The notes beneath the pieces are model-generated. The model was not told the DNA's origin. It ran no database searches and saw only the letters and a list, made by a program, of their open reading frames with translations. The position numbers and the translations under genes were made by a program. From the NCBI GenBank assembly GCA_016207275.1, contig JACQPY010000007.1, positions 10,265-74,264 on the forward strand: a stretch of DNA of 64,000 nucleotides. The letters are read 5' to 3'. Positions 4,264 through 60,295 of the stretch are shown piece after piece. Origin of the DNA: Candidatus Kerfeldbacteria bacterium (GTDB taxonomy: Bacteria > Patescibacteriota > Patescibacteriia > SBBC01). Within the stretch, counting starts at the first letter, position 1. Each line of letters opens with the position of its first letter.

Positions 4264-4300
4264 ACTACCTACTAAATTCTCTCATACTAACCACTATACC

Positions 4301-9448: not shown

Positions 9449-9702
9449 TACGATTCCGGACTAATGGTCACCGCCGGCAGTTCGACTGAGAACGATCCGC
9501 GCCAATCAACGCTGCTCAAGCTGGCCCAGGTAGCAACCACGATCAGAGATACGACCACGACGTAGACCGCGCTCATGGCGTAGGCTGTAGCGGTGTGCAT
9601 GCCAAAGCGCATGACGTGGTAGACGTTAAAAAAGCTAAAGACGACAATCACGAGCAGGGCCGCGCCGTAGACGATCAGCACGATGTAGGCTGGGATTTCC
9701 AT
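9448..9702 (-). CDS. Small membrane protein (2 TM)
   Basis: 84 aa and hydrophobic. Stop/start overlaps with ruvB and the bPH gene. Confidence 0.4.
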   Translation of the reverse strand: MEIPAYIVLIVYGAALLVIVVFSFFNVYHVMRFGMHTATAYAMSAVYVVVVSLIVVATWASLSSVDWRGSFSVELPAVTISPES

Positions 9703-16047: not shown

Positions 16048-16174
16048 AGGTTTGAAGTGCTTAATTCGTCGGATTTCGACGACAGATAGACAGTATGGAT
16101 TCAATGCTATACGGTGTCAAGTTCCCCAAATTATGGAGAACGCCAGCTCGTCTACAACCAGGAGGAATGAGAAA

Positions 16175-37347: not shown

Positions 37348-37597
37348 ATGACTGTGGGATTGTGGTCACAAAAATCGCGGGTGGCCACGGCACAAACTAG
37401 GGATAACTCTCCCCGCCGTTACCAAACCACCAACACCTTATCCCATTGACGCCGACGCCTGCCAACAACCCCCACCAACCCACCCACACTGCCACCAACA
37501 CAAAAACCACACCACCACCACCCCTAACCCCAACAAGCAACCACCGAAACAATGGTTATCCACTTTCCCACCGTCCTTATTACTATTACCATCTGGT
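37348..37597. promoter_or_regulatory. Candidate oriC in the dnaA-dnaN intergenic region
   Basis: DnaA boxes GTTATCCAC (about 37552), TTATCCCA and TGTGGGAT. An AT-rich stretch ttattactattaccatctggtatgaaaat. A CA-only tract of about 110 nt at 37440-37550. Confidence 0.5.
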
Positions 37598-41776: not shown

Positions 41777-42997
41777 GTGCTATACTTTCAAGCGTTTAGC
41801 GCACTAATGGACTCTCGCGAACTATTAACTCGTGGTATTGCTGAAGTCGTTGATCGAGCGCACCTCGGCCAACACCTCAGTCGTGGCCGCCCGTTGCGCG
41901 TTAAGTTCGGCATTGACCCGACCGGCGCGCAATTACACCTTGGTCACGCGGTACCGCTGCGAGTGTTGCGTCGCTGGCAAGACCTCGGTCACGTCGCTGT
42001 CTTGATTATTGGCGACTATACCGCCAGCATCGGTGATCCGTCAGGTCGTACTGAGACACGGCCGCCGTTGTCTGACGCCGCGATTAAAAAAAATTACGCG
42101 ACCTACGAACGTCAAGCGTTCAAGATTATAGACCAGAAACGTACCGAGGTCCGCTGGCAGTCTGAGTGGTTTAAGAAGTTTTCGCTAAAAGACCTTATCG
42201 GTCAGGCGGCGCAGCTGTCAGTCGGCTGGATACTGTCCCATGAAACGTTTCGCGACCGCGCCAAAAACAGGCAACCGCTGGCTTTTCACGAGCTGTTCTA
42301 CCCGCTGCTGCAAGCTTACGATTCAGTGGCGGTCAAAGCTGACGTGGAGGTCGGCGGGCTCGATCAAAAATTCAACCTGCTGACCGGCCGGGAGTTAATG
42401 AGAGCACACGGTTTGCCGCCACAGGACGTGGTCCTGACCAAGTACCTAATCGGTACGGACGGCCAGAAAATGGGCAAGTCGCTCAACAACTTTATTGCCC
42501 TGGAAGAAGAGCCGTTTGAGATGTTCGGGAAGATTATGTCCTTGCCAGATACCGTGCTGCGCGACTATTTCGAGCTGGCGACTGATGTGGCACTGGCGGA
42601 TTTTGAAAAAATGCACTGGTCAGGCGCCGAAGCGCGGAACACGAAGATGTTTTTGGCGCGCAAGATTGTTGAGGAGTACCATGGTGTCGAGAAATCGAAT
42701 GAGGCGATGCGAAAATGGGAAGACTTTCGAGAGGGAAAAACCGACGGCCGAACAGTCGAAGTAAAATTTTGGAAGGCGTTAAGAGACGTTGTAGTAAACG
42801 CCGGCTACGCCCGTAGCAATAGTGATGCTCAAAGGTTGTTCGAACAAGGAGCAGTTTATCTTGACGGAAAAATTGAAAAAGATTGGCGGAAAAATCCTTG
42901 GGATGTTGGTTTAGGCTGGCATCAACTCGTTATTGGAAAGAAAAAAAGAACGGTCAAATTTCTCATTCAGGCACTGCCAAAAAAGAAAACAATTTGA
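41777..42997 (+). CDS. tyrS: Tyrosine--tRNA ligase
   Basis: FGIDPTGAQLHLGH, KMGKS, and a C-terminal S4-like domain. Confidence 0.8.
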   Translation: MLYFQAFSALMDSRELLTRGIAEVVDRAHLGQHLSRGRPLRVKFGIDPTGAQLHLGHAVPLRVLRRWQDLGHVAVLIIGDYTASIGDPSGRTETRPPLSDAAIKKNYATYERQAFKIIDQKRTEVRWQSEWFKKFSLKDLIGQAAQLSVGWILSHETFRDRAKNRQPLAFHELFYPLLQAYDSVAVKADVEVGGLDQKFNLLTGRELMRAHGLPPQDVVLTKYLIGTDGQKMGKSLNNFIALEEEPFEMFGKIMSLPDTVLRDYFELATDVALADFEKMHWSGAEARNTKMFLARKIVEEYHGVEKSNEAMRKWEDFREGKTDGRTVEVKFWKALRDVVVNAGYARSNSDAQRLFEQGAVYLDGKIEKDWRKNPWDVGLGWHQLVIGKKKRTVKFLIQALPKKKTI

Positions 42998-43071
42998 CTT
43001 CGGAGCTCAGTCAAACGCATCCGGCAACTGTCAAGAAACACACCACCCCGCAAACACAAACAAGCGGTTAA

Positions 43072-43095
43072 CGTCATATTAGCCCCTCCTCACAT
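43072..43095. repeat. Palindromic element GCCCCTCCTCacatGAGGAGGGGC flanked by an A6 run
   Basis: 10-bp stem. Lies between tyrS and the end of the alpha-glucan operon. Confidence 0.6.
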
Positions 43096-43160
43096 GAGGA
43101 GGGGCAAAAAACGACCTATGTTTATTCCACTGCTTGTGGGGTGGTCTGATTGTTGAATGG

Positions 43161-44120
43161 TTACCGACGTTTCTTCGAGGGTCTTTTCTTCCCTTCTCCC
43201 CGGTAGAACCTAGCCGCATCTTCAGGTGGAACGGTGTTGACGATGAGCCGTGATCCGAGTTCGAGGCCGGCCCAGACGTCGCCGCGCGGCGCAATCCGAA
43301 GGTAGAAGTGTTCGTTTTTGTCGTTGACCAGCTGGTGGCAGAAGAGGTTGTAGGGCAGGCCGAGCGTACTCAGCTTTGTCAACAGGTGCTTGAGCATGGC
43401 GGCCAGCGACTGTCGCTCAACGGCTTTTAGGTTGCCGAGGTTGTCGACATGGCGCCAGGGAATGATCCAGGCTTCGTAGTTGTAGGACGAGGCGTACGGA
43501 GCGATCACGCCGAAGTGGCCATCTTCAGTAATCCAGCGCGGACCTTTTTGCTCGCGGACGAGGAGGTCCTCATAATAGCAGCGACCTTTCTGGATCTGGT
43601 ACTCTTCTGCCCGTCGGCGTTTGTCAACGATGTGCGGCGGGACGAACGACGAGGCGAAGATTTGCGAGTGCGCGTGGGCAATCGAGGCGCCGGCTTTTCC
43701 GCCGCGATTTTTGAAGGTCATGATGTACTTAATTTTCGAGTCCCGTTCGAGCGTGCGGATACGTTTGCCAAAGACGTCGATGATGATGGCGATGTGCTCG
43801 ACCGACAGGTCGGCAAACTCGACGTTGTGTTCCGGCGTATCAATCACCACTTCTTGGTAGCCGTAGGCTTTCGGGTTGCTCGCGTGAACAACGGGGTAGA
43901 CGTTCTTGATGACTTTGACGGTCCAGTGTAAGCCACGACCAATCGTCAAGAGCGCTTTGACGTCGCGCAGCTGCGGGGGACAGAAAATGCAGGTGGCCGG
44001 GCCTTGGTCTTGATGGACCACGGTCGTCGGCGGAAAGTCATGCGGTCGGCGCTTGCGTCCAGCCGCGATGATGACCACCCGATCGTGAATGTAGTCTTGG
44101 CGAATTTCTGAGGTTGTCAT
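43161..44120 (-). CDS. GalT-family nucleotidyltransferase (galactose-1-phosphate uridylyltransferase / ADP-glucose phosphorylase-like HIT)
   Basis: CIFCPP (CxxC). HIT motif SIAHAHSQIF. Last gene of the glucan operon. Confidence 0.65.
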   Translation of the reverse strand: MTTSEIRQDYIHDRVVIIAAGRKRRPHDFPPTTVVHQDQGPATCIFCPPQLRDVKALLTIGRGLHWTVKVIKNVYPVVHASNPKAYGYQEVVIDTPEHNVEFADLSVEHIAIIIDVFGKRIRTLERDSKIKYIMTFKNRGGKAGASIAHAHSQIFASSFVPPHIVDKRRRAEEYQIQKGRCYYEDLLVREQKGPRWITEDGHFGVIAPYASSYNYEAWIIPWRHVDNLGNLKAVERQSLAAMLKHLLTKLSTLGLPYNLFCHQLVNDKNEHFYLRIAPRGDVWAGLELGSRLIVNTVPPEDAARFYRGEGKKRPSKKRR

Positions 44121-45559
44121 AGCGTCTTCCGGGCTTGTTGGTACAGCTCGAGGTAGGCGCGGGCCGAGCGATCCCAGGAAAAATCTTGGGTCATGCAGCG
44201 ACTAAGGAGGGCTTGCCAGCGTGGCCGGTCGTGGTACCAGTGTAAACCGCGAGCGACGGACTCGGCAAAGGCTTTCGGCGTAAAGGGGGTAAAGGTGAAG
44301 CCCAGGCCGCGCTCAGGTTCAGCCGCGACGTCGGGGACCGTGTCGATCAGCCCGCCGGTGGCGTGGACGACGGGGGGGGTGCCGTAACGCATGGCGATCA
44401 TTTGGCCGAGGCCGCACGGTTCGAACACTGAGGGCATCAGGAAGAGGTCACAGCCGGCGTAGATCGCTCGGGCAAAGGCTTCGTCGAAGCCGAGACGGGC
44501 GTAGATGTGGCGGGGGTGTTCGCGGGTCAGTTTCTGGACCAGGCTTTCGTAGTCAGCCAAGCCACTACCGAGTAGGACGAGCCGGGCACCGGAACGTACC
44601 ATCATTGTACTATGCTGGACGATCAAATCAACGCCTTTCTGTTCGGTCAGACGGCCAATAAAACCAAACGTGGGAATCGTTGGATCAGGCGTAAAGCCGC
44701 ACTGTTCGTGTAGGGCCAACTTGTTTTCAGCTTTGCGTTCAATGGTGGCTGCGGTGTAGCGAACGCGAACGTACCGATCATGAGCCGGATCGTACTGGTG
44801 GGTATCAATGCCGTTGATAATGCCGACCAGATCGTCGCGGCGGTCCTGGAGCGATTCAGCCAGCCCTTCGCCGCGTTCGGGGGTGAGAATTTCTTGGGCG
44901 TAGTGTGGACTGACCGTATTGATCAACGTCGCGCCCAACACACCTTGTTGGAGGAGGTTAAGATCGCCATGGCGGTCGCGGGTGGCCAGGTGCCGGCCGT
45001 CAGCTTCCTGCAGTTCCAGAAACGATAAGACTGCGGCGGCGTTCCAGCCACCCTGGTGGGCCAGGTTGTGGATGGTAAAGACGGTCGCGGCCCGGACGGC
45101 CCGACGAGCCAGCAGAGCCGGCACTAACCCGGTATGCCAGTCGTGGCAGTGGACAATGTTAGGCTCCCAGCCGAGCAGGGGAACGATTTCCGCCACCGCC
45201 GCCGAGAAGAATAAAAAGCGGGCCAGTTCCGTGAACGGCTCGTCCACGCCGTGTTCGTTGTAGACTGGACCACGGCTGAGGTAGGTGGTGTTCTCAATCA
45301 AGTAGACCGGTACCTTCGTTTCCGGTAGCTGACTGGTTAGCACGCGGCAGTGTTCCTGACCGCGACCAGTGGTGACCACTACATCCGGCAACAGCGGTTC
45401 GAGCGAGGGATTACCCGTTAACCGCTCATAGCGAGGCATGATGATGCGGACATCGACCCCGAGCCGCTTGAGGGCAATCGGTAGAGCGCCAACGACATCA
45501 GCCAGTCCGCCGACTTTAGCGAACGGACTAACTTCGGCGCTCACCAAGAGGATGTTCAT
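44117..45559 (-). CDS. glgA: Glycogen/starch synthase (GT5, GlgA-like)
   Basis: N-terminal AEVSPFAKVGGLADVVGALP (K-x-GGL). Confidence 0.8.
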   Translation of the reverse strand: MNILLVSAEVSPFAKVGGLADVVGALPIALKRLGVDVRIIMPRYERLTGNPSLEPLLPDVVVTTGRGQEHCRVLTSQLPETKVPVYLIENTTYLSRGPVYNEHGVDEPFTELARFLFFSAAVAEIVPLLGWEPNIVHCHDWHTGLVPALLARRAVRAATVFTIHNLAHQGGWNAAAVLSFLELQEADGRHLATRDRHGDLNLLQQGVLGATLINTVSPHYAQEILTPERGEGLAESLQDRRDDLVGIINGIDTHQYDPAHDRYVRVRYTAATIERKAENKLALHEQCGFTPDPTIPTFGFIGRLTEQKGVDLIVQHSTMMVRSGARLVLLGSGLADYESLVQKLTREHPRHIYARLGFDEAFARAIYAGCDLFLMPSVFEPCGLGQMIAMRYGTPPVVHATGGLIDTVPDVAAEPERGLGFTFTPFTPKAFAESVARGLHWYHDRPRWQALLSRCMTQDFSWDRSARAYLELYQQARKTL

Positions 45560-47589
45560 GGTTGCGCCAGGTGATTCAGGAGTTCGCCAATCAGTCGGCG
45601 GAGTAGGTCCACGTACCGCCGCCGATTCGGGTCGCGTGGTCCGAGGTTGACCAGGGTAATCGCCAGAATGTCGAGTGCGCTCCGCAGCTCGAAGGTCGGG
45701 AGCGAAGCTCGTACCTGGTGACGCTGTTGTTGGTTGAGTGACTGGAGATAGGCTTGGGTGAATCGTTCTCGCAGTCGGTTGATGACGCCAGGGACGAGGT
45801 GACCGTGGAGCATGACGTTAAGGTGCATGCGGAATATACCGAGGTCTATGGCTGGATGTCCGATGCCGCTCTGGGTGAAGTCTATCAGCCCAATCCCGGA
45901 CGGAACGGCGATGATATTGCTGGCCTGAAAGTCGTGATGGACCAAGGCGCGCCGATCGTACCAGCGGGTTCGTTCCGCGGCCGTGATGGACTGGAACGTT
46001 TTTCTGAGGTTTAGAAGTGCCCCGGGCCCACCTTGCTTAATCTGTCGTTCCAGCCGACGCAGGAAACGCCGTTCCGCTGACCAGGTTAAGTGTCGCAGGC
46101 CCGCGGTCGGGACCCGCTGGAATCGGGCTAAGGCGCGGCCCGCCGCCACCACGAGTTTGGCAAAATGACCTGAACGGAAGGGGACCAGCCGCAGCGGAGC
46201 GCCGACTAACTCTTCGTAAAAGACGTACCTGAGCTGTGGTTCATACCGTAGCGGCCGAATACTGGCGAAGCCCTGGCGGTGCTGCCAAACGCGGGCCATC
46301 ACTGCAAAACTCGCGTGATCAATCCGATTCCCCCGGACTAGCCTGTAACTGGTCTGGCCGTCCGGCCAGACGATATTCAGTCGGTAGCGCATCAGGTAGC
46401 TCTGTATCGACAGGGCGCGGTGGTGCTCGAGCTGGAGCCGAGCCAGCGTCTGCGCCCCCGGGAAAAACTGTTTGAGGTGGGTGGTAAAGTAGGCCTGCAT
46501 GGTACCGCGGTTTTGCAGGGCGCGCGGCAAGGTAGCGGGCCTGACCGCGGATAGCGCGAGCGGTGGCGGGAAACGGCCGCCAATCAGCAGCTGTTCGGCG
46601 GTGATCAAGGCGGCTCGCGCTATCCGGCGGCCAAGCGCGGGGCGAATAGACAAGGTATAGGCCAGAACCTGCAGGCTCCACCAGGCGCGGTGGAGCTTGA
46701 TCCGTTGGCCTGCCTGCGGTCCGACCTCGACGAGGGCCGGCCGGTAACCAGTCATAAAAGCTCGTCCGAGCCGTTGGGCGAAGCGTCGGCGGCAGCGGCC
46801 TTTCCAGACGAGCAAGTCGACTTGGGCAAAGAAATTGCCTACATCGCTCAAAGGGTCAAAGGTGACGCTGTTGCCAAAGTCAATAAAAGCCGTGCTGCCG
46901 TCGCGGCTGGCAATGATGTTGTCGAGGTTGAGGTCGCCGTGGATGGTGCGGAAGTATCGGCCGTAGCGGCGACCGACCTCAACCTGGGCAGCGGTGGCGG
47001 CCTGGAGAAGCCGGACTGCGTGCTCGAGGTATGCCGGCGCCGCTCGGACAACGTCATCACGGAAGTAGTTGGCGTCCCGTTCAATGCGGGCCGGCGTTCG
47101 TCGCGGACTGGTCTGGAGGCGCAGCCGGTGCAGCCGAGCCAGCCACCGGCCGGCGTCGCGGGCCGTCGCGACGGCCAGCGAACCGCCCCGTTCGATCAGC
47201 CGCTCGAGCGGTATGCCTGGCGAATCTTGGTACAGGTGGAGTCGGAGGCGACGAACCACGCCAAATGAGGCCGGAGCGCGCAGCCGGTCGGCCGAAAAAC
47301 TGGACCGCGTCAGCACCTGCTGTAACCGGTCGGCGATCGACGCTTCGTTGCCCGTGTCCTTACTCGGAATGTTGCCGCGGATGATGTGCCGCATCGTCCG
47401 GCCGCCGGGGCGGCGGAGCGTCAGATCGTAGCGAAGTGAGTGCTTAAAGGAAAAGCGACCGATTTCGCGGGCGCTGGCCGACCGGAGCGTGGTGCCAGGC
47501 GGGTAGGCGCGACGGACGATCCGCGACAGCAGCGGGCGCATGGCCTGAATCGTTCGGGCTTGCCGGACGAGCTTGCCCTCGGTCGTCAT
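45556..47589 (-). CDS. Tandem APH/maltokinase-like phosphotransferase (two kinase-like domains)
   Basis: Domain 1 has IHGDLNLDNII...IDFG. Domain 2 has LVHHDFQASNII...IDFT. Sits in an alpha-glucan context with 4-bp overlaps on both sides. Confidence 0.55.
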   Translation of the reverse strand: MTTEGKLVRQARTIQAMRPLLSRIVRRAYPPGTTLRSASAREIGRFSFKHSLRYDLTLRRPGGRTMRHIIRGNIPSKDTGNEASIADRLQQVLTRSSFSADRLRAPASFGVVRRLRLHLYQDSPGIPLERLIERGGSLAVATARDAGRWLARLHRLRLQTSPRRTPARIERDANYFRDDVVRAAPAYLEHAVRLLQAATAAQVEVGRRYGRYFRTIHGDLNLDNIIASRDGSTAFIDFGNSVTFDPLSDVGNFFAQVDLLVWKGRCRRRFAQRLGRAFMTGYRPALVEVGPQAGQRIKLHRAWWSLQVLAYTLSIRPALGRRIARAALITAEQLLIGGRFPPPLALSAVRPATLPRALQNRGTMQAYFTTHLKQFFPGAQTLARLQLEHHRALSIQSYLMRYRLNIVWPDGQTSYRLVRGNRIDHASFAVMARVWQHRQGFASIRPLRYEPQLRYVFYEELVGAPLRLVPFRSGHFAKLVVAAGRALARFQRVPTAGLRHLTWSAERRFLRRLERQIKQGGPGALLNLRKTFQSITAAERTRWYDRRALVHHDFQASNIIAVPSGIGLIDFTQSGIGHPAIDLGIFRMHLNVMLHGHLVPGVINRLRERFTQAYLQSLNQQQRHQVRASLPTFELRSALDILAITLVNLGPRDPNRRRYVDLLRRLIGELLNHLAQP

Positions 47590-48959
47590 GGCTTGGTCGA
47601 GCTCGGCTGTTCGTACCGGCGCAGTTCTTTAATTCGGTCGCGGAGTTGCGCCGCCCGTTCGAACTCTTGTCGACTCGCCACCAAGGCCATCTCCTTTTCC
47701 AGGTTTTTGATGATTTTCTCGATCTCCCGTTTTGGCAACGTCGGCATGCCCTCGTCGGTACGTTGGCGGATTTCCTCGTCTTCCTGTTTCGACAGCGCCT
47801 CGACAATGCCCTCCCGCTGCCAATCGAAGCCGGTAAAGACGATTCGCTGGTAGAGATCAGTCGCCCGGCGTTTAGCCTCGTCGCTCGCGCCCGGCGTTTT
47901 CAGGACTACATCTCTCAGTTCCTTGGCTCCGCGCTCGATCATTTCCAGCGACCACCACGGCTTGGCCGAGGCCCACCAGTACTGATCAGAGTGCAGCGCT
48001 CGGTCCAGCAGCTGGCGGGCTTCAGCGTAACTTGGGCCGGTAGCGCTAGCGGCCCCGAGGGTGGCGATCGCCAGATCAGTCAGCTGCCACTGCAGCTGGT
48101 GAATAGTGTTGTCCTGATCGTCCCAGCGGGCGAAGGGGACGCTGCGCTCCAAGTCCTTTTCCATCAACGCCCAGGTTGACGGCAAGAGGCTGACCGAGGC
48201 GGTCGCGGTGAAGCGCTGCGGCAAATCAGAAATCAGCACGGTTTCCAGGAGCTTCGATTCGTAGACTTCGAAAAGGAGGTGCTCCATGCCCGGTCGGTGG
48301 TGGCCAAACGTTTCACCATCCATCGCCGTTAGGAGGTACTCGTGGCGTTGGAGCCGGTCGCCCAAACCTTCGATTAAGAGGTTGCCGGTGCCGAGCTGAC
48401 CAGAGAGAATTTTGTAGCTCATCCGCCGTTCGCGGAAGTAGATTTTCAAGGCCGGGGCGTCGGCATTGGTGTAGATTTTGGCGTAGTCAATTTTGCCGAG
48501 TTGGCGGTTAAAAGATAACTCATCGCAGATAATCCATTCAAAGCCGAGCCGGGACACGACTTCAGCCACGTGTTTTGAGATGCCCATTTCCGGTGGGAAA
48601 AATCCACGCGGTCGGTAGAGGTCGCCGAAGTACTGGCGATGTGTTTGAGTATTGAGCTCAATTTGCCGGATAATTTCTTGATCCGGAAGTCGGGGGAGCA
48701 GGGGATGGAACTTGGCCGAACCGGTCAGCTCGATTTGTCCGCATTTCAGCAGTTCGCGGACGAGGTCAATGACATCGGTCGCGCCGTTCTGTTCCCACAG
48801 CTCGACCAAAATGGAGCTGATATTCATGGTGGTCCGCGCGTGCGCGTGTTCGAGCATGCCGCGGAGAATTGGTCGGTACGACTCGGCCGTGATTTTTTTC
48901 ACCCAAAACAGCTTCTGGGTCGGCGGTTGGTAGAAGTGCAGGAAGTTGGCCCAAATCAT
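47586..48959 (-). CDS. Glycoside hydrolase family 57 domain fused to a C-terminal UVR (UvrB/UvrC-type) motif
   Basis: N-terminal MIWANFLHFYQPP GH57 signature. C-terminal QEFERAAQLRDRIKELRR UVR helix-hairpin. Confidence 0.6.
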   Translation of the reverse strand: MIWANFLHFYQPPTQKLFWVKKITAESYRPILRGMLEHAHARTTMNISSILVELWEQNGATDVIDLVRELLKCGQIELTGSAKFHPLLPRLPDQEIIRQIELNTQTHRQYFGDLYRPRGFFPPEMGISKHVAEVVSRLGFEWIICDELSFNRQLGKIDYAKIYTNADAPALKIYFRERRMSYKILSGQLGTGNLLIEGLGDRLQRHEYLLTAMDGETFGHHRPGMEHLLFEVYESKLLETVLISDLPQRFTATASVSLLPSTWALMEKDLERSVPFARWDDQDNTIHQLQWQLTDLAIATLGAASATGPSYAEARQLLDRALHSDQYWWASAKPWWSLEMIERGAKELRDVVLKTPGASDEAKRRATDLYQRIVFTGFDWQREGIVEALSKQEDEEIRQRTDEGMPTLPKREIEKIIKNLEKEMALVASRQEFERAAQLRDRIKELRRYEQPSSTKP

Positions 48960-48979
48960 ATACTCGGGTGTGAAACCTT

Positions 48980-49090
48980 CCCCGACTGGATCGGGGATTT
49001 CCCCCTCCGATGCTCCCCCCTTCCCTTTAGGGTGTCGACCCTTGCGGCTCCGCTAGGGTCCCGTCCGTTGGACACCCTGATCGTCGCCGC
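48980..49090. repeat. GC-rich structured intergenic element: C-rich run plus AGGGTGTCgac...GACACCCT inverted repeat
   Basis: Lies between the two GH57 genes. 8-bp inverted-repeat arms with a GTCGAC core. Same C-rich flavour as the palindromic element family. Confidence 0.4.
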
Positions 49091-49158
49091 TGCAGGTCGA
49101 CGGGTTGTTATACAAAAGCCTAAGATTAGCATGACGTAGTTGGAGCCTTTTGATGCTT

Positions 49159-50376
49159 TTAGTTTACACTTTTTCCGCCGAGGTAGCGAGGCATTGGCTC
49201 GTGGCGCATGAAGCGCTTGAGGTGACGGTCGGCGGCGCCGGAAGCGTGCCAGCGATGAGCGGTGTTTTTGATGCTCCCGACCAACCTACGGACTCGTTCG
49301 AGGGTCGAGTGCGGCGGGCTGAGCTCCTCAGCCAGAAGCCGCAGCCGTTCGGCGGCCTGCATAATGATGTCGACGTCCCACCACGGCTCGCGTGAGGCCC
49401 ACCAGTACCAGTCGCTAGCCATCGTCTGGTCGAATTCGGTCCGGATCGGCCGGGGCAGTCGGTCGCGGCGTTCGTGGTGGTAGACTAACTTGAGCACGGT
49501 GGTAAACAGCGCCCATTGGAGCTGGTGCAGGTGATTTGCGGGGTTTCGCCAGAGGACAAAGGGCACGTCGCGAGCCAGGTCGGCTGGCCGACTGGACCAG
49601 CTGGCCGCCCGCGGCCGGACGGTGCGCGGACCGTCGAGCGATTTAAGCACCTCCGAGATGGTCACCGTTTCGACGGTGGGAAGCCGGACCAGGTGCTGCC
49701 ACATTTTTTTGGCCGCCCGCCGGTGGTGGCCAAGGTTTTCGCCGTCCATCGCCGTGATCAGTAGACTCTTCTGCCCGTTCCATCGCTGGACCGTCGAGAA
49801 GAACTTGTGAACGTCCCCAGGTTGCGCTTCGAACGCCAGGTAGTCGCTGACAAAGCGGTTGCGGAAAACGGCGGTCAGGGTCGTGCCGGCGATTCGGTAC
49901 TGTTGTTCGTAGTTAACCAGTCCCGGGTGACTGATCCCGTCAAGGATAACCCAGCGGTAGCCGAGCTGGCTGAGCCACCGGCCGAGCTTGGCATTGTAGG
50001 CCATCTCCGGCGGAAAGAAGCCGGCCGGCCGGTAGGCCGAACCAAAGGCTCGCCGGTTGGTGGCCCGGTTGAGAGTTACTTGACGCCGAACCTCGGCTTC
50101 CGGCAGGAGCGGCAGAATCGCGTGGTACATCGCCGAGTCGGTCAGTTCGACCTGGCCCCGCTGCAAGAGTCGACGGAGCCCGGTCACGATTGGCCGAAAG
50201 GCTCGCTGCTGCAGCTGCTCGGTCAGCGAGCCGGCAATATTAATGGTCACCCGCACGTCACGGTGGCTGAGCAAAAACGAGATCAGCGGGCGGTAGCTTT
50301 CCCGCGCCACTTTAGCGATGACGCGCGTCGGCCAGTGCGGCGGCTGGTAGAGGTGAAAGAAGTTAGCCCAGCGCAT
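49159..50376 (-). CDS. Glycoside hydrolase family 57 protein (second copy)
   Basis: MRWANFFHLYQPPHWP. The start was set at the internal ATG 50376, because the longer ORF would overlap glgA-2. Confidence 0.6.
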   Translation of the reverse strand: MRWANFFHLYQPPHWPTRVIAKVARESYRPLISFLLSHRDVRVTINIAGSLTEQLQQRAFRPIVTGLRRLLQRGQVELTDSAMYHAILPLLPEAEVRRQVTLNRATNRRAFGSAYRPAGFFPPEMAYNAKLGRWLSQLGYRWVILDGISHPGLVNYEQQYRIAGTTLTAVFRNRFVSDYLAFEAQPGDVHKFFSTVQRWNGQKSLLITAMDGENLGHHRRAAKKMWQHLVRLPTVETVTISEVLKSLDGPRTVRPRAASWSSRPADLARDVPFVLWRNPANHLHQLQWALFTTVLKLVYHHERRDRLPRPIRTEFDQTMASDWYWWASREPWWDVDIIMQAAERLRLLAEELSPPHSTLERVRRLVGSIKNTAHRWHASGAADRHLKRFMRHEPMPRYLGGKSVN

Positions 50377-51853
50377 CAGAACGTTCGTGTGATCGTTGTT
50401 TTTGCAGCACCATCGCCTGTCGGTACAGCTCGACGTACTTCTCGGCCGGGATGTCCCAAGAATACGATTCTTGCATGGCTTGCCAGGCGAGGTGCTCCCA
50501 CACCTGCGGGTACTTGAAGGTTTCCAGGGCGCGGACGATTGCCACCAGCAGGTCGTCCGAGGCGTAGCGCGAAAAAACAAAACCCGTACCTTTGCCAGTG
50601 CGCGGATCGAAGTCCTCGATCGTGTCGGATAGGCCGCCGGTTTTGCGGACGATGGGAATGGAGCCATAGCGCAGGCTGATGAGCTGGGACATGCCGCACG
50701 GTTCGTAGCGGCTGGGCATCAAGAACATGTCTGAGCCGGCGTAAACCCGAGAGCCGAGTTCTTCGGTGAATGGCGTGAGCAAGGCGATGCGGCCGGGATA
50801 GGTCCGAGCTGCCCGCCTGAAAATGTTGACGTAGTCTCGGTCACCGGTGCCGACAATGACCATTTGGAGGGGCAGCTGCATCAGAACCGGCAGGATGTTT
50901 TTGATTAAGTCAAAGCCCTTCTGCTCGGTCAAACGATGAACCAGCCCGATCAGGGGAATATCGTCGCGCGGCTCGAGGCCGATCATTTTCTGAAGCTCGC
51001 CTTTGTTCTGACGCTTGCGGTCGAGAGAGTTCCAATCGTAGGGGTGCCACAGGTGCGAGTCAAACTGCGGGTTGTAGACTTGGTAGTCAATGCCGTTGAT
51101 GATTCCGAAGACATCTTTCTGACGACGGCGAAGGAGGCGGTCGAGGCCCTGACCGTACTCCGGGGTTAAAATTTCTTGGGCGTACCGGACGCTGACGGTA
51201 TTGATCGCGTCAGCGTAACGAATGCCCCGCTTGGCGAAGTTGACCCACCGGATTTTGGCACTGCTTTTCGGCAGCGGGCCGAGTCCGACATCAACTTTAT
51301 CTGACGGACCCTGCCACCAGTTTCCCTGCATTTGGAAGAGTAAGTTATGGATGGTGACGACGGTTGCCGTTTTGCTGAAAAACGGATTATCCTGCTCACG
51401 GGTCCGGAGAATATTTGGGATGATGGCGGTGTGCCAATCGTGGCAGTGAATGACGTCGGGTGGTTCGCCGAGGCGTTGGGCCAGCTGGACGACCGCCATC
51501 GAGAAGACGGCGAAGCGGAGGGCGTCGTTGTCGTGCCCGTACATGTAGACTTGATACCGGCCGTACAACTCCTCGCTACAAATAAAGTAGATGTCCAGAC
51601 CTTCGCGGAGTTTAAGGTGTTTAGTTTTTAGGTGGTAGGTGCCATCGCCGATCGCCACGTCGAACTCGATTCCCGGCTGATCGTAAGGAATCTCGGCGTT
51701 CTTCATGAAGCCGTAGAACGGCGTGACTGAGACGATCCGGTGTCCGAGCTTCGCCAGGTGTTTTGGCAAGGCGGCGGCCACGTCGCCTAAGCCGCCACTT
51801 TTCGAGTAGGGTGAGACTTCGGCGCTGGCGCTCAGGATAAAGAGGGGGTTCAT
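50363..51853 (-). CDS. glgA: Glycogen/starch synthase (GT5, second GlgA paralog)
   Basis: AEVSPYSKSGGLGDVAAALP. Confidence 0.8.
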   Translation of the reverse strand: MNPLFILSASAEVSPYSKSGGLGDVAAALPKHLAKLGHRIVSVTPFYGFMKNAEIPYDQPGIEFDVAIGDGTYHLKTKHLKLREGLDIYFICSEELYGRYQVYMYGHDNDALRFAVFSMAVVQLAQRLGEPPDVIHCHDWHTAIIPNILRTREQDNPFFSKTATVVTIHNLLFQMQGNWWQGPSDKVDVGLGPLPKSSAKIRWVNFAKRGIRYADAINTVSVRYAQEILTPEYGQGLDRLLRRRQKDVFGIINGIDYQVYNPQFDSHLWHPYDWNSLDRKRQNKGELQKMIGLEPRDDIPLIGLVHRLTEQKGFDLIKNILPVLMQLPLQMVIVGTGDRDYVNIFRRAARTYPGRIALLTPFTEELGSRVYAGSDMFLMPSRYEPCGMSQLISLRYGSIPIVRKTGGLSDTIEDFDPRTGKGTGFVFSRYASDDLLVAIVRALETFKYPQVWEHLAWQAMQESYSWDIPAEKYVELYRQAMVLQKQRSHERSDALG

Positions 51854-52935
51854 GAGGTTAGCGGAATGTCCAGCTCATTGGCGGCCAGCACGAACATGGC
51901 GTGGCTCCAGACGAGGGGGGAGATGCCAATCCGGAAGTCGCTAAACAGTTGCTCGGGGAGGTACCGATCGACGCGGTCAATGACCCAGTTAAAGTAGGCC
52001 TCAGCCTTTTCTCGATCCCCGGCGCGGTTCAGGACGATCGCCAACCAGAAGTTGAGCACCGGCCAAGCGCCGCCGCCTTCCCAGGCCGAACCTTCCGAAT
52101 CGAAGTAGTCAAACTGGTAGCGGTGGACGCCGCCGTCAACCACCAGCGTCCGTTCGATTGTTTGGATGGTGCTGAGCATGCGCTCGTCGTTGGGTTCAAC
52201 CATCTCGAACGGCCAGCCTAAGCCGAGAACTGAAGCGTCGATGTTGGCGTCGTCAATCTTACCGTGGTTGCGCAGGAAGTAGCCGCGCTGCTCATCGTAG
52301 GCCTCGTCGACCTCCTTTTCCATTTCTTGGGCGGTTTGCTTCCAGAGCTTGTGCGGCCAGAGTTCGTTGGCCAGGAAGAGTCCTCGGCTGCAGGCGGCGA
52401 TCGAGTAGGTGAAGTTGTTTTCCACCCGAGACGAGGTCTGGCGAAAGCCGTCTTCCCAGAGATCGACGGTGTTGGGCAGAAAGTACGTTTTGTTCCAGGC
52501 CGCGGTTAAGCCGTCGCACAACCGATCAACCAATGCTCGGAACTGGTTTGCCCGCTTCCCATCGCCATGACAGTACTGGTGGATGGCCCATAAGACCGTG
52601 CCCATTTGGTCTGGTTGGAACATTCGGCCCATGCTGCCGATCCGTCCGTTGGTCGAGTAGTTGGAGAATAACAGGCGGTCTTTCTGAAAATCCTCTGGTT
52701 TTGTTTCCAGCCAGCGAAAGAACGACTCGGCCGCAGGCAATCCCAGCTTTTCCGCGGCCAGGGCAGTGAAGCAGGCATCACGCGGCCAGACGTAGCGGTA
52801 GTCAGCCGCCTCTCGCGGGTAGTAGGGTTTGTCCGAGTTGGCGGCGACGATCGCGCCGTTATCGAGCATGGCGTCGTCAATGACCTGGCGCGACGATTCG
52901 AGCAGGCGAGTGATTTTGGCGCGGCGATCAGTCAT
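51850..52935 (-). CDS. Glycoside hydrolase family 15-like (glucoamylase/glucodextranase catalytic barrel only)
   Basis: YRYVWPRDACFTALA and the (alpha/alpha)6 length. First gene of the operon. Confidence 0.55.
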   Translation of the reverse strand: MTDRRAKITRLLESSRQVIDDAMLDNGAIVAANSDKPYYPREAADYRYVWPRDACFTALAAEKLGLPAAESFFRWLETKPEDFQKDRLLFSNYSTNGRIGSMGRMFQPDQMGTVLWAIHQYCHGDGKRANQFRALVDRLCDGLTAAWNKTYFLPNTVDLWEDGFRQTSSRVENNFTYSIAACSRGLFLANELWPHKLWKQTAQEMEKEVDEAYDEQRGYFLRNHGKIDDANIDASVLGLGWPFEMVEPNDERMLSTIQTIERTLVVDGGVHRYQFDYFDSEGSAWEGGGAWPVLNFWLAIVLNRAGDREKAEAYFNWVIDRVDRYLPEQLFSDFRIGISPLVWSHAMFVLAANELDIPLTS

Positions 52936-53431
52936 ACCGGCCGGGCCGCGTGCCGCAGACTGCCACGGCCACCGCGTCAGCGGCGTCGTCCGGATGCGGC
53001 GGGCGGTCGAGTTTGAACAACAGCTGGAGCATGCGCTGGACTTGTCGTTTATTAGCTTGACCGTAGCCGGTCACCGATTGCTTAACGGTCAGGGGCGAGA
53101 ACTCCTGGATCGGTAGCCGATGTTCAGCCGCCGCCAGCATCACCACGCCACGCGCCTGACTGACGACCATGGCCGTTTTGACGTTGGTGGAGAAGAACAA
53201 CTGCTCGACCGCCATTCGGTCGGGGCGGTGCTTGGTCATCAGGTCGTGGAGGTTACGATGAAGCGTTGCTAGTCGCTGGCCAACTGGTTGACGGGCTGGC
53301 GTTTCGATGGTCCCGCAGGTCTTGAGCGAGAGTGAGCCGTCAGCCAGTCGAACTACGCCGTAGCCAGTTCGACCGAGGCCGGGATCGATACCCAGCACAA
53401 TTAGTTCAGATGGCGGCGTTCGTGGCGACAT
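52928..53431 (-). CDS. ruvC: Crossover junction endodeoxyribonuclease RuvC
   Basis: LIVLGIDPGLGRTGYGVV. The start was chosen at MSPRT (53431). Confidence 0.8.
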   Translation of the reverse strand: MSPRTPPSELIVLGIDPGLGRTGYGVVRLADGSLSLKTCGTIETPARQPVGQRLATLHRNLHDLMTKHRPDRMAVEQLFFSTNVKTAMVVSQARGVVMLAAAEHRLPIQEFSPLTVKQSVTGYGQANKRQVQRMLQLLFKLDRPPHPDDAADAVAVAVCGTRPGRYD

Positions 53432-54122
53432 CGTTGATATCCTGAAGGTCTTCGAGAGCCAGGAGAAAGTCGGTAACTTTTTCCCGCTGGTCGGCCGGCG
53501 GTGCCATGACGGTAGTTGGAACGAGGGCCAGTTCGGCGTTGAGTACTTCGGCACCGGCCGCCGTCACCGCGTCGCGCACGGCTGCTAGGGCAGTCGGCGA
53601 AGTATAGACGATGACGGAATCGCCTTCCTCGACTACATCCGCGGCGCCGGCGTCAATGGCCGCAAGCTCAACAGCCTCGCGATTGGCGTTGCGCTTGACT
53701 TCAACAAAGCCCCGACGCGCAAACATCCACCGGACGCTGTTGGTGTGGCCAAGGCGGCCGCCGTACTCGGTAAAAACTCGGCGTAGTTCGCCGGCCGTGC
53801 GGTGGCGGTTGTCCGTGAGGGCCTCGACTACCACGGCAATGCCGCCCGGCCCGTAGCCCTCGTAGGTGACCGTGGCCATCGGCCGGTCAGTCGCTTCGCC
53901 GCTGCCGCGTTTGATTGCCCGTTCGACGTTGTCTTTCGGCATGTTGGCAGCGCGGGCCTTCTCGATCGTCAAGCGAAGACGAAAATTGATCGCCGGGTCC
54001 GGGCCACCCTCGCGAGCGGCAATGGTAATGGCGTTTGCCAATTTGGTGAAAGCGATTCCTTTTTTGAGGTCAGCCGTTCCTTTTTGGCGTTTGATTTGTG
54101 CCCATTTCGAATGTCCAGACAT
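53406..54122 (-). CDS. YebC/PmpR-family transcriptional regulator
   Basis: MSGHSKWAQIKRQKG. Start at 54122. Confidence 0.8.
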   Translation of the reverse strand: MSGHSKWAQIKRQKGTADLKKGIAFTKLANAITIAAREGGPDPAINFRLRLTIEKARAANMPKDNVERAIKRGSGEATDRPMATVTYEGYGPGGIAVVVEALTDNRHRTAGELRRVFTEYGGRLGHTNSVRWMFARRGFVEVKRNANREAVELAAIDAGAADVVEEGDSVIVYTSPTALAAVRDAVTAAGAEVLNAELALVPTTVMAPPADQREKVTDFLLALEDLQDINDVATNAAI

Positions 54123-54273
54123 ACAACGATGATGATCCGATTTCGTTCGGATCACACGGCCAGGTCAATCGTGAAGTACCGTGCATTGTATCATTTTTTT
54201 GCATGCTCGTCAATCAAATGGCAGTCGGATAACTTGCATATCGGGTAGCGTTTGCTAAAGTACTGACGTACAC

Positions 54274-55365
54274 TTGAATGCTCGACGCATGCCGCACCGG
54301 CTAGACACTACACGTTTGTACCGATCCCGCGCCCGGCAGCTGGTGCTGGCGTCGTTGCGTTCGTTCGCCGAGCAGTGTCGTCGTGGATTTGCCGAGGCGC
54401 GAGCGGTAACGTTTCCCGCCTCGTTTCGGAAGATCGACCAGGTCGTGGTCGTCGGCATGGGCGGTTCGGCGCTGGGCAGCGACGTTATTCGGAGCGTGTT
54501 TTTTGATCAGCTGCGCCTGCCGCTGACCGTGGTCAACGGCTATGCCTTGCCGCGCTCGGTTACGTCGCGCACGCTCGTAATCCTGTCGAGCTACTCGGGT
54601 ACAACCGAGGAGGTACTGGCGGCGGCGGCCAGCGCCCACCGTCACCGCGCCCGGATTACGGGTTTGACCGTAGGCGGCCCGCTCGGTACCTGGTTTCGCC
54701 GCCACCAGTTGCCGTGGTACCGAATTGACGGCGGCGCCAACCCGGCGGGGCAGCCGCGCCTCGGCTTAGGCTACAGCATCATGGGTCAGCTCGGGTTGCT
54801 GGCAGGCTTAGGACTAATTCGCCTGCCAGGCCGGGCGGTGACTTCCCTGGCGGCCTACCTGGAACGCCGCGCCTGGGATTTTGACGTAGCCCGACCAAAA
54901 CGGACCAATCCTGCCAAGCAGCTGGCCGTAACACTCCGAACCTCGTTGCCGATTGTGGTTGGGGCGGAGCACTTGAGCGGCAGCGTCCACGCGATGGCCA
55001 ATCAATTGAACGAAACCGCCAAGACGTTGGCCGTACCCTTCCAGCTGCCAGAACTTAATCACCATCTCCTCGAAGGGTTGCGTTGGCCGCGCGCTGTTCG
55101 GCAAGCCACGATGGTGCTGTTCCGATCAGACCTCTACCACCGGCGCGTGGCCACCCGCGTTCGAGTTACTGCTGAGTTGGCTGAACGAGCGGGGCTACGG
55201 GCAACCGTGGTCCCCGTCCACGGTATGGATCGCCTGACCCAAGCGTTCGATCTCCTTGTCTTCGCCGGCTACGTCAGCTTGTACCTCGCCGTAGTGCACG
55301 GCGTCGATCCGTTAGCTATTCCGACGGTCGACGAGCTGAAGCGCCGGCTGCACCGCGCGGCCTAG
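54274..55365 (+). CDS. Bifunctional phosphoglucose/phosphomannose isomerase (SIS domain, archaeal-type PGI/PMI)
   Basis: VVVGMGGSALGSDV SIS motif. 363 aa. Confidence 0.6.
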   Translation: MNARRMPHRLDTTRLYRSRARQLVLASLRSFAEQCRRGFAEARAVTFPASFRKIDQVVVVGMGGSALGSDVIRSVFFDQLRLPLTVVNGYALPRSVTSRTLVILSSYSGTTEEVLAAAASAHRHRARITGLTVGGPLGTWFRRHQLPWYRIDGGANPAGQPRLGLGYSIMGQLGLLAGLGLIRLPGRAVTSLAAYLERRAWDFDVARPKRTNPAKQLAVTLRTSLPIVVGAEHLSGSVHAMANQLNETAKTLAVPFQLPELNHHLLEGLRWPRAVRQATMVLFRSDLYHRRVATRVRVTAELAERAGLRATVVPVHGMDRLTQAFDLLVFAGYVSLYLAVVHGVDPLAIPTVDELKRRLHRAA

Positions 55366-57082: not shown

Positions 57083-57089
57083 GCGGCCG

Positions 57090-57734
57090 ATGATTTCCGA
57101 TGACCAGCTGCGGGCGCGTCACCAGGCGGTCCCGCCTGATTACTACGACCGCGGCGTGCGGATCAACGCCTGGCAGCGTGTCTGGCACGAGCGTCGCCGT
57201 CCAATTGTGGAACGATTGCTGATCGGCCGCGGTGGCCGCTTGCTCGACGTCGGCTGCCACGGTGGGTACCTGACGCGGATTATTGCCCAGGCCAGTCGGG
57301 CGGCGGTTACCGGCATCGACATTTCGCCGCCAGCGGTGGCCTACGCCCGGGCGTACGTCCCAGCCGCCCAGTTCGTCGTTGGCGACATCCAGGACGGCCT
57401 GCCGTTTCCCGACGGCAACTTTGAGACGGTGACGGCTTTTGATGTACTCGAGCACGTGCCGCGCCTGGAGTCGGTACTGCGTGAAGTTCACCGCGTGCTC
57501 GCGCCGGGCGGGTTATTTGTAATTGGCGTACCGCGCGAGACGCGGCTGTGGCGTTTGGTGTGGACACTGTGGGTCAAATCGCGCGGCGCAGTCTGGCACG
57601 ACGTCCACGTCCATAAATTCACGCCCGAACGACTGTCTGAGGTGATTACCGCTCAAGGGTTCGGCGAGCGTCAACGCGTGGTATCGCACTGGGGAATGTA
57701 CAGCGTCTTAACGTTTGAACGAGCAAAAAGATGA
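57090..57734 (+). CDS. Class I SAM-dependent methyltransferase
   Basis: LLDVGCHGGYL motif I. VLAPGGLFVIGVP. Confidence 0.7.
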   Translation: MISDDQLRARHQAVPPDYYDRGVRINAWQRVWHERRRPIVERLLIGRGGRLLDVGCHGGYLTRIIAQASRAAVTGIDISPPAVAYARAYVPAAQFVVGDIQDGLPFPDGNFETVTAFDVLEHVPRLESVLREVHRVLAPGGLFVIGVPRETRLWRLVWTLWVKSRGAVWHDVHVHKFTPERLSEVITAQGFGERQRVVSHWGMYSVLTFERAKR

Positions 57735-60293: not shown

Positions 60294-60295
60294 TC

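Follow-up and report, generated by a model that had tools for sequence, protein, structure and literature searches.

The 64-kb stretch of DNA analysed here, called the window throughout, comes from a metagenome-assembled genome of a Candidatus Kerfeldbacteria bacterium and carries a cluster of genes predicted to act on α-glucans. Open reading frame (ORF) mapping showed that positions 43161-52935 are filled exactly by seven genes, all on the minus strand. From 5' to 3' they encode a glycoside hydrolase of family GH15 (51850..52935, 361 aa), a glycogen synthase, GlgA2 (50363..51853, 496 aa), two enzymes of family GH57, namely GH57b (49159..50376, 405 aa) and GH57a (47586..48959, 457 aa), a kinase built of two domains resembling aminoglycoside phosphotransferases (APH) and choline kinases (ChoK) (45556-47589, 677 aa), a second synthase, GlgA1 (44117..45559, 480 aa), and a GalT-like enzyme of the GalT/HIT family (43161..44120, 319 aa). 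The genes, their strand and their order are exactly those proposed in an initial annotation of the window, and its domain calls hold for all seven proteins in Pfam and NCBIfam profile searches. The start/stop overlaps that it described are found at five of the six internal junctions (4, 14, 4, 4 and 4 nt). The sole junction without overlap lies between GH57b and GH57a, where a G+C-rich spacer of 199 nt (48960..49158, minus strand) separates the two genes. The GH57b ORF extends to 50667 when called mechanically, but the gene really begins with the ATG at 50376 (MRWANFF), which produces the 14-nt overlap with GlgA2, because the N-terminus then aligns with that of GH57a and the length fits that of the homologues (405-414 aa).

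The kinase, GH57a and GalT-like proteins of the window are each 100% identical to a protein of the Candidatus Kerfeldbacteria genome, encoded there on an 81-kb contig. The cluster is widespread. With GH57a as the query against one genome per GTDB species, a relative was found in at least 582 species representatives, and among the best 80 species matches nearly all either carry the label of, or resemble, Patescibacteria, a group that also goes by the name Candidate Phyla Radiation (CPR). We surveyed 86 loci annotated with hidden Markov models (HMMs) built from the window proteins. The order yebC-ruvC-GH15-GlgA-GH57-GH57/UVR-kinase-GlgA-GalT, which includes the two genes preceding the cluster in the window and the UVR tail of GH57a described below, recurs in other Kerfeldbacteria, in a closed Nomurabacteria genome and in unclassified Patescibacteria; on a Portnoybacteria contig, the core GlgA-GH57/UVR-kinase-GlgA is present. 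The arrangement also holds in 80 further GTDB species loci. Closed genomes with the cluster include CP060223.1 (Nomurabacteria) and CP181398.1 (Kerfeldbacteria). The yebC-ruvC-cluster order was found in 39 of the 86 loci. The invariable core consists of an A2-type GlgA followed, sometimes with a second GH57 gene between them, by the GH57 gene with the UVR tail. The cluster has probably been inherited vertically. Thirteen of the cluster contigs bear the labels "uncultured Gammaproteobacteria", "Candidatus Saccharibacteria" or "Anaerolineales", which probably reflects automatic labelling or mis-binning. Features of the locus at first regarded as unusual are thus conserved traits of a Patescibacteria-wide cluster and none is peculiar to the window genome. 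The cluster is a glycogen-type one with non-canonical parts; in the literature that we searched we found no published description of it, of the GH57-UVR fusion, of the kinase, of DUF4931 or of CPR glycogen.

Both GlgA proteins are assigned to glycosyltransferase family GT5, ADP-glucose type, by TIGR02095 (cut-off 328.45; GlgA1 517.5 bits, GlgA2 494.9 bits), and both have the KxGGL motif (KVGGL at aa 15 of GlgA1, KSGGL at aa 18 of GlgA2). Their membership in this family suggests that they use ADP-glucose as the donor. GlgA1 and GlgA2 are 37% identical, GH57a and GH57b 35% identical. In the surveyed loci, the upstream synthase is of the GlgA2 type in 74 of 74 cases and the downstream one of the GlgA1 type in 49 of 53. 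Because type follows position so constantly and the identities are this low, sequence comparison identifies the two synthases, like the two GH57 enzymes, as ancient positional paralogues rather than products of a recent duplication. The cluster had been described as containing duplicated GH57-GlgA modules. Two diverged pairs are indeed present, but they are mirrored (GlgA2-GH57b and GH57a-kinase-GlgA1) and do not form a tandem repeat of one module.

The GH15 protein matches PF00723 with 78.3 bits against a cut-off of 22 and keeps both catalytic glutamates, in WED (aa 160) and PEQ (aa 327), which align to WEE and PEQ of the structure 5Z3A. Only the catalytic domain is present. The N-terminal β-sandwich domain is absent, and the match to the two-domain glucoamylase model TIGR01577 (131.5 bits vs a cut-off of 820.7) covers positions 273-614 of 616. 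The nearest match in the PDB, at about 52 bits, is 5Z3A itself, the isomaltose glucohydrolase of Kribbella flavida. Like the cluster protein it is a single-domain GH15 enzyme lacking the bacterial N-terminal domain; unlike it, the cluster protein sits in an α-1,4/α-1,6 glucan operon, whereas the Kribbella enzyme presumably serves dextran use. None of the seven proteins of the cluster has a predicted signal peptide or transmembrane segment. Since leaders are missing and the catalytic motifs begin at residues 8-18, which leaves no room for one, the sequences place the seven-protein system in the cytoplasm. This bears on the reading that the cluster serves the uptake-linked degradation of starch or glycogen from the environment or a host, GlgA being secondary. 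Surveys of CPR genomes do count GH57, GH15 and GH13 enzymes as amylose or starch degraders, and such a reading would agree with them. However, the proteins lack signals for export or membrane insertion, two ADP-glucose-type synthases lie in the same overlapping array, and the conserved core pair is a GlgA with the GH57-UVR protein, so that we regard this explanation as highly improbable.

The two GH57 proteins pass PF03065 (cut-off 21.2) with 128.2 bits for GH57b and 114.4 bits for GH57a. All five regions of the family are present (HFYQP/HLYQP, GQIE/GQVE, FPPE(M), DGETFG/DGENLG and SDQYWW/SDWYWW). The catalytic glutamate (nucleophile, conserved sequence region CSR-3) and aspartate (proton donor, CSR-4) are intact in both, at Glu124 and Asp214 in GH57a and at Glu124 and Asp211 in GH57b, which lacks the UVR tail. 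Glu124 of GH57a aligns to the nucleophile region of the T. litoralis enzyme, and E124 and D214 are invariant in an alignment of 40 sequences. The AlphaFold2 model of GH57a (predicted local distance difference test, pLDDT, 87) shows a (β/α)7 barrel followed by a helical bundle, and its top Foldseek matches are all GH57 structures (E 1e-17 to 1e-11). These matches do not clearly discriminate between 4-α-glucanotransferases, amylopullulanases and branching enzymes (E ~1e-17 to 1e-13, TM 0.54-0.62). As all solved GH57 types score alike, we rejected a structure-based assignment of specificity for GH57a.

Published GH57 fingerprints were also applied. The branching-enzyme fingerprint (PMC6037648, PMC9291813) comprises Leu at logo position 23, Phe plus a non-aromatic residue at positions 35-36, a flexible loop of 17-22 aa and β5-β6, while Trp-Trp at positions 35-36 marks amylopullulanases and Thr at position 23 marks α-amylases. 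With CSR-4 and CSR-5 assigned to logo positions by motif, a mapping of our own, both enzymes have Trp-Trp at positions 35-36, and position 23 is occupied by Thr in GH57a, by Asn in GH57b. On this motif-based mapping neither protein fits the branching-enzyme or the 4-α-glucanotransferase signature. They are also smaller (390-405 aa vs about 520 aa for branching enzymes), and the NCBIfam branching-enzyme models give 19-32 bits against cut-offs of 920-1000. A branching-enzyme identity was consequently rejected on fingerprint, size and profile scores alike.

This result invites another view of the product, which could be an α-glucan other than glycogen: a linear, amylose-like one, a cell-envelope or capsular one, or a phosphorylated one, the kinase modifying the polymer in the manner of starch phosphorylation. 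The cluster has no recognisable branching enzyme, its GH57 fingerprints are amylase- or amylopullulanase-like, the substrate of the kinase is not fixed, and GT87, GT2 and methyltransferase genes occur among the neighbours, all of which would suit such a product. The array contains no exporter, however; Sulfolobus makes glycogen with a GlgA and amylase pair and no GlgB; and we know of no APH-fold kinase that acts on polymers. Taken together, we judge a different type of glucan to be decidedly unlikely.

The C-terminus of GH57a is unusual for a glycoside hydrolase. A UvrB/UvrC-type UVR helix-hairpin (PF02151) was detected at aa 414-448 with 32.3 bits against a cut-off of 21.5; the hairpin as a whole spans aa 410-448 (47616..47732, minus strand), and the motif reads …EKEM…EFERAAQLRDRIKELR. 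Models of UvrB, UvrC, McsA and ClpC are also matched by this stretch, as are C-terminal UvrB peptides of the PDB; among these, the match to the NCBIfam model of the McsA kinase activator is weak. In the AlphaFold2 model, helices 410-429 and 433-447 form a hairpin (pLDDT ~76-82) preceded by a linker of low confidence. This linker is acidic, and together with hairpin residues E432, E434, R435, A436, A437, R440, R442, E445 and Y449 it is invariant in the 40-sequence alignment. The initial annotation, which had proposed a UVR tail, had left room for a generic coiled coil; the Pfam score, the UvrB matches and the invariance in 40 homologues confirm the former and rule out the latter. Across many CPR lineages, GH57a with its tail keeps 60-84% identity in the top 120 clusters (clustered at 90%), nearly all of which combine PF03065 and PF02151, and its relatives are named only "UvrB/UvrC motif-containing protein" at NCBI. 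In UvrB/UvrC, McsA and ClpC, the UVR motif mediates dimerisation or docking to a partner. The tail of GH57a shares with them the motif and the predicted helix hairpin, and differs in being fused to a glycoside hydrolase in a cluster where a Pfam search found no second UVR motif. The hairpin would oligomerise GH57a or dock a partner.

The GalT-like protein closes the array. PF01087 (GalP_UDP_transf, N-terminal) is matched with 53.2 bits against a cut-off of 22.1, as is the Pfam family DUF4931_N, while the GalT equivalog models are missed (TIGR00209/NF008724, 86.7 vs 102.1 and 112.3 vs 448 bits). Its nearest PDB relative is Arabidopsis At5g18200 (1Z84/2H39), with an E-value of 2e-42 over 304 residues; E. 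coli GalT follows at 3.5e-18. Both the zinc ligands (CxxC/His) and the nucleophile motif HxHxQ align to 1Z84 (CIFC at aa 44 and HAHSQ at aa 149 in the window protein). A published paper describes At5g18200 as an ADP-glucose phosphorylase. The cluster protein shares with it the HxHxQ, CxxC and His zinc-ligand residues, At5g18200 being its best match among solved structures, and differs in being a bacterial protein of 319 aa with a DUF4931_N match, encoded in a glucan synthase operon. On these sequence features it is ADP-glucose-phosphorylase-like rather than a classical GalT. The earlier suggestion that a GalT/HIT enzyme handles the nucleotide sugar is accordingly likely, with ADP-glucose the likely nucleotide sugar. 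Within CPR its conservation amounts to 55-85%, and it is annotated there only as "DUF4931" (NCBI) or as a uridylyltransferase (JGI).

We searched the ORFs of the window and of the 86 loci for the classical glycogen genes by phmmer with E. coli GlgC, GlgX and GlgP. No homologue of any of them was detected in the 64-kb window, glgB not having been probed directly; the reported absence of glgC is thereby confirmed for this window. In the 86 loci, GlgC gave a single weak match of 24.8 bits, GlgX none, and GlgP-like genes were found in seven. Pfam scans of the other genes of the window revealed neither a phosphoglucomutase (PGM) nor a nucleoside triphosphate (NTP) transferase. The GlgP-like (GT35) genes occur only near clusters without a GalT-like gene. 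Among the 51 loci of at least 17 kb, 36 contain the GalT-like gene only, 5 the GlgP-like gene only, 10 neither and none both. This mutual exclusion may reflect functional replacement or a lineage effect, the GlgP-like genes lying in WWE3-type loci.

The pattern raises the possibility that GlgA1 and the GalT-like enzyme are degradative or buffering, interconverting glucan and inorganic phosphate (Pi) with glucose-1-phosphate (Glc-1-P) as a net reaction; the pair would stand in for glycogen phosphorylase, and ADP-glucose would come from a glgC located elsewhere. Besides the exclusivity in the 51 long loci, the argument from thermodynamics that an ADP-glucose phosphorylase favours phosphorolysis speaks for it. 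On the other hand, glycogen synthase would have to run strongly against its favoured direction, the exclusivity tracks lineage and is phylogenetically confounded, and the flanks contain no convincing glgC. We therefore consider such a phosphorylase substitute improbable.

The kinase is encoded directly downstream of GH57a, its start coupled to the GH57a stop by ATGA. PF01636 matches the 677-aa protein with 94.8 bits over two stretches, in keeping with the two consecutive APH-like domains first noted from the sequence. The N-terminal domain (46555..47589, minus strand, ~aa 1-345) contains R71-G-N, H217-G-D219...N224 and D237-F-G, and the C-terminal domain (45556..46554, minus strand, ~aa 346-677) R419-G-N, H551-x-D553...N558 and D570. 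The HxDxxxxN motif and the Mg-binding aspartate are thus kept in both halves and are invariant in 16 full-length homologues. In contrast to the aspartates, the ATP-binding lysine of strand β3 is replaced in both by an invariant arginine (R71 and R419, in "RGN" on the third strand of the N-lobe). The AlphaFold2 model is of high confidence (pLDDT 91.6, predicted template modelling score 0.84).

The two halves are paralogous, with about 29% identity. With the single-domain kinase of one surveyed locus (L004) the C half shares 31-32% identity, and this C-terminal domain is the orthologue of the kinases that occur as single domains in other CPR. An exhaustive profile search retrieved single-domain relatives of either half, and full-length tandem kinases of 654-684 aa form about 15 clusters at 50% identity. 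Because of these ~15 full-length representatives and of the single-domain relatives that match the one half or the other, the sequence data identify the 677-aa protein as a fusion of two neighbouring paralogous genes and not an assembly artefact; the frameshift or mis-joined gene that the initial annotation had allowed for is ruled out. Tandem APH domains are not unique to this cluster, as the architecture is shared by unrelated proteins (the tandem ones 750-810 aa long): we noted other families of 750-1400 aa with two or three APH stretches, among them a fusion of an ABC transporter with APH.

Genomic context ties the kinase to GH57a. Apparently kinase-less loci with gaps of 1-2 kb proved, after re-iteration of the kinase HMM and a Pfam check, to hold divergent APH-like genes. 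Seventy-five loci extend far enough downstream to be judged. In 55 of them the gene right behind GH57-UVR is APH-like: there is a single gene in 41, two adjacent genes in 5, which represent the same two-kinase arrangement in split form, and a fused gene in 9, the window included; the remaining 20 have a GH57-UVR gene and no kinase. Every kinase-like ORF in about 1.4 Mb of locus DNA (63 of 63) occupies this position 3' of the GH57-UVR gene. Fifteen of the loci encode kinases in which HxE replaces the HxD motif and which possess the β3 lysine and an "IDWEN" motif; this sub-family may comprise pseudokinases or have a variant catalytic loop. In eight loci, a protein of 294 aa with a PHP domain is encoded between the kinase-like gene and GlgA1 (e.g. 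L073:12377-13261). It resembles 3',5'-nucleoside bisphosphate phosphatases and RNase RNM, far under the cut-offs. We left it aside as a candidate partner phosphatase, since its TrpH/pAp-phosphatase-like matches are that weak and the gene is absent from the window.

By structure and profile, the neighbours of the kinase are mostly small-molecule kinases: APH enzymes, choline and ethanolamine kinases, the ACAD11 kinase domain, and macrolide and corramycin phosphotransferases. Weak NCBIfam matches were obtained to the peptide-phosphorylating APH-fold proteins LxmK, CotS and Bud32. The maltokinase cap Mak_N_cap was not matched in Pfam, and no maltokinase (Mak) structure appears in the top 50 Foldseek matches or the 60 profile matches shown. 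Identities as maltokinase, NahK or methylthioribose (MTR) kinase are unsupported, the neighbours being kinases of the generic APH and choline types, with MTR kinase only in 35th place.

An alternative role would be regulatory. The protein could be a protein kinase or a pseudokinase that partners GH57a, binding its UVR hairpin or acidic linker and switching between synthesis and mobilisation, in parallel to the activation of McsB by the UVR-motif protein McsA or to the eukaryotic glycogen synthase and phosphorylase kinases. The position of the gene right after the UVR-bearing GH57 with ATGA coupling, the invariance of tail and linker while the kinase diverges, the weak resemblance of the tail to the McsA kinase-activator model and that of the kinase to LxmK, CotS and Bud32, and the HxE motif in a quarter of the family, which is possibly non-catalytic, would all fit. 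Most of its neighbours are small-molecule kinases, though, and as 20 of the 75 loci contain the GH57-UVR gene and no kinase gene, the UVR tail does not need the kinase. A regulatory function appears rather unlikely to us on balance.

A metabolic alternative is a GlgE-like route operating beside GlgA, in which the kinase is an analogue of maltokinase that makes maltose-1-phosphate and one of the retaining GH57 enzymes extends the glucan from it. Maltokinase is an established APH-fold anomeric kinase, and the kinase of the cluster is tied to a GH57 enzyme of no assigned specificity. The mycobacterial TreS-Pep2(Mak)-GlgE system is alike in linking an APH-fold kinase to a GH-family enzyme of α-glucan metabolism and in providing a glgC-independent entry to α-glucan. 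It is unlike the cluster, which has GlgA synthases and lacks a Mak cap, GH13 proteins of the TreS/GlgE class and a preferential structural similarity to Mak. Indeed, neither Mak_N_cap nor a Mak structure was retrieved as described above, a search around the cluster that used E. coli GlgX as the probe brought up no GH13-type protein of the TreS/GlgE class, and no GH57 enzyme using sugar-1-phosphate donors is known to us. We thus view this route as quite improbable.

With these alternatives in mind, we favour the view that the operon directs a cytoplasmic, GlgC-independent synthesis and turnover of a glycogen-like α-glucan across the Patescibacteria, to which we assign a probability of roughly 0.6 on the gene content and its conservation. 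The α-glucan operon proposed for this locus at the outset has withstood the outcomes that could have undone it: the UVR tail is no generic coiled coil, the kinase is no mis-joined gene, and both GH57 enzymes pass the profile searches with their catalytic Glu and Asp intact. The GalT-like enzyme would convert ADP and Glc-1-P to ADP-glucose and Pi, pulled forward by GlgA, and thereby replace GlgC, spending no ATP and releasing no pyrophosphate (PPi) at this step. We propose it as the donor supply because the cluster is without glgC, and its place in a glucan synthase operon suggests the synthetic direction. The pairs of GlgA and GH57 enzymes (GlgA2 and its GH57 partner) would jointly build and shape the polymer, in parallel to amyA-glgA of Sulfolobus. 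Mobilisation would fall to GH15, and possibly to one of the GH57 enzymes, freeing glucose or oligosaccharides. The substrate of the kinase would be a small sugar, or else the glucan, that GH57a produces or releases, the GH57a gene being invariably the next one upstream. The guess that needs the fewest assumptions, and a speculative one, is an anomeric sugar-1-kinase that supplies the GalT-like enzyme.

The nearest functional analogue of the cluster is the crenarchaeal glg locus; for single components, At5g18200, single-domain GH15 enzymes, the UVR motif of UvrB/UvrC and generic APH kinases come closest. In Sulfolobus acidocaldarius, this locus is made up of glgX-gaa-glgC and amyA-glgA; amyA-glgA is needed for glycogen synthesis and the glucoamylase for degradation, and no GlgB was found (PMC8158581). 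Shared with the cluster are a GlgA directly paired with an "α-amylase", which in Sulfolobus is required for glycogen accumulation, a GH15-type glucoamylase for mobilisation, the lack of a recognisable GlgB and the intracellular location of the enzymes. The archaeal system differs in having glgC and glgX in the locus, a separate glgP, a single GlgA and a single amylase, and in lacking an APH kinase, a GalT-like gene and a UVR tail. Its amylase AmyA (Saci_1200) we take to be a GH57 protein. Comparison with glgBXCAP of E. coli gives an ADP-glucose-type GT5 GlgA polymerase and clustering of the genes as common traits. In the window and most relatives, however, GH57, GH15, GalT-like and kinase genes replace GlgC, GlgX and GlgP, and the GlgX probe retrieved no GH13-type protein, with glgB not probed directly.

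Several observations weigh against a glycogen-like product made by this route. As neither GH57 enzyme has the branching-enzyme fingerprint, a branched product is not demonstrated. The genes glgC, pgm, glgB and glgP could lie elsewhere in the genome of about 1 Mb, the search having covered 64 kb and the flanks of the relatives. By the general thermodynamics of sugar nucleotides, ADP-glucose phosphorylases would be expected to favour phosphorolysis, and the GalT-like enzyme could therefore be degradative, or else a true hexose-1-phosphate nucleotidyltransferase. Further points concern the kinase. It has an arginine in place of the β3 lysine in both halves, and nothing marks it out as particularly similar to maltokinase or to other anomeric sugar kinases that are known. 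In 18 of the 72 kinase-like domains adjoining GH57-UVR, HxE replaces HxDxxxxN, so that catalysis may not be the conserved role of the kinase. Finally, the kinase occurs without the GalT-like gene in about 12 loci and the GalT-like gene without the kinase in 9; the two are not mutually dependent, which weakens the notion that the kinase feeds the GalT-like enzyme.

We find a more detailed, ATP-sparing version of the glycogen pathway speculative and unlikely to hold in full. In its first step, the APH-fold protein would act as an anomeric kinase and phosphorylate glucose, or a malto-oligosaccharide released by GH57a or GH15, at C1 to give a sugar-1-phosphate. The HIT enzyme would then join this sugar-1-phosphate with the ADP just made, the net reaction being glucose + ATP -> ADP-glucose + Pi, after which two specialised GlgA isoforms would polymerise ADP-glucose. 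GH57a, by means of its UVR hairpin, would gather the kinase, the synthases or both into a metabolon. In a variant of this version, the kinase would phosphorylate the glucan itself, as happens to starch or glycogen in other organisms. Precedents exist for a sugar kinase and a GalT-family nucleotidyltransferase encoded in one operon, as in Leloir GalK/GalT and in bifidobacterial NahK/GalT2 of the GNB-LNB pathway, NahK presumably having the APH fold. Unlike in these systems, the nucleotide used by the cluster enzyme is likely ADP with Pi as the leaving group, the kinase is not demonstrably anomeric, and the kinase and GalT-like genes also occur separately.

The array appears to extend beyond the seven genes that the initial annotation grouped as an operon. 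Two genes on the same strand precede GH15: ruvC (52928..53554; the Pfam match begins at aa 53 of the ORF and the probable start is M42, at 53431), which runs 8 nt into the start of GH15, and yebC of the TACO1/YebC family (53406..54155; probable start M12, at 54122), which overlaps ruvC. A sigma-70-like promoter candidate lies upstream of yebC at 54185..54213 on the minus strand (TTGACG-17-TACAAT with a TG, 10/12 matches to the consensus); by consensus match, it is the top promoter-like site in 42900-54400. Because yebC, ruvC and GH15 overlap and the best promoter-like site precedes yebC, the array is probably one of nine genes with a single internal spacer of 199 nt, and the sequence makes it likely that the whole transcription unit starts at this promoter. 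The seven genes stand, while their delimitation as the complete operon probably does not. Beyond the promoter, a bacterial-type phosphoglucose isomerase (PGI; 54274..55365, plus strand) diverges from the yebC promoter region. It had been placed downstream of the cluster; it lies upstream and is divergent, and the downstream neighbour at the 3' side of the array, in convergent orientation, is tyrosyl-tRNA synthetase (TyrRS). A PGI gene is found near the cluster in 24 of the 51 long loci. Next to it, an ORF of 560 aa (55400-57082, plus strand) has no Pfam match, and a homologue occurs near the cluster in 28 of these loci.

The 199-nt spacer was considered as a functional RNA. Rfam gave no match over 42-55 kb, hence no riboswitch or leader in the spacer, and neither a promoter nor a terminator was matched within it. 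Its fold is marginally more stable than that of shuffled sequences (z = -2.07), with one strong local GGGG…CCCC hairpin. The sequence is not kept in loci L001, L003 and L008, and the gap ranges from about 7 to 130 nt in relatives. In L003 and L008, repeated TTGAC motifs are found at the equivalent place. Given the lack of an Rfam match, the marginal fold and the lack of conservation, we rejected the functional RNA.

The wider surroundings are those of a chromosomal origin. The genes dnaA and dnaN lie at 35986-38695 on the plus strand and at about 32-34 kb the cumulative GC skew changes direction, with its minimum near 32 kb; the window thus spans a region of replication origin. The glucan cluster is located 5-17 kb from dnaA and transcribed toward it. 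In relatives, synteny extends from the cluster through TyrRS, in some cases a ROK-family gene, a penicillin-binding protein (PBP), DciA and DnaN to DnaA. Two gene sets of surface-polysaccharide type flank this region: one at 1640-6786 (minus strand), with two Wzy_C O-antigen-ligase-like proteins, a GT4 and a flippase, and one at 57015-62864 (plus strand), with two methyltransferases, two GT87 and a GT2. Strong AT-skew excursions coincide with both. A TrmB-family (sugar-specific) transcriptional regulator is encoded at 15244-16104 (minus strand), about 27 kb from the cluster, and ruvB at 9702-10727 (minus strand), about 42 kb from ruvC.

Patescibacteria have tiny genomes and are usually seen as host-dependent starch degraders. 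A strongly conserved cytoplasmic operon with two synthases speaks for internal carbon storage in many of them, apparently by means of a non-canonical set of enzymes. If the GalT-like enzyme does make ADP-glucose from ADP and Glc-1-P, glycogen would be synthesised without ATP at the activation step, which would bear on the energy economy of obligate fermenters and on how the pathways to glycogen and starch evolved. The cluster also offers hundreds of natural variants in which the substrate of the kinase, the partner of the UVR hairpin and the specificity of a new GH57 subfamily may be sought.

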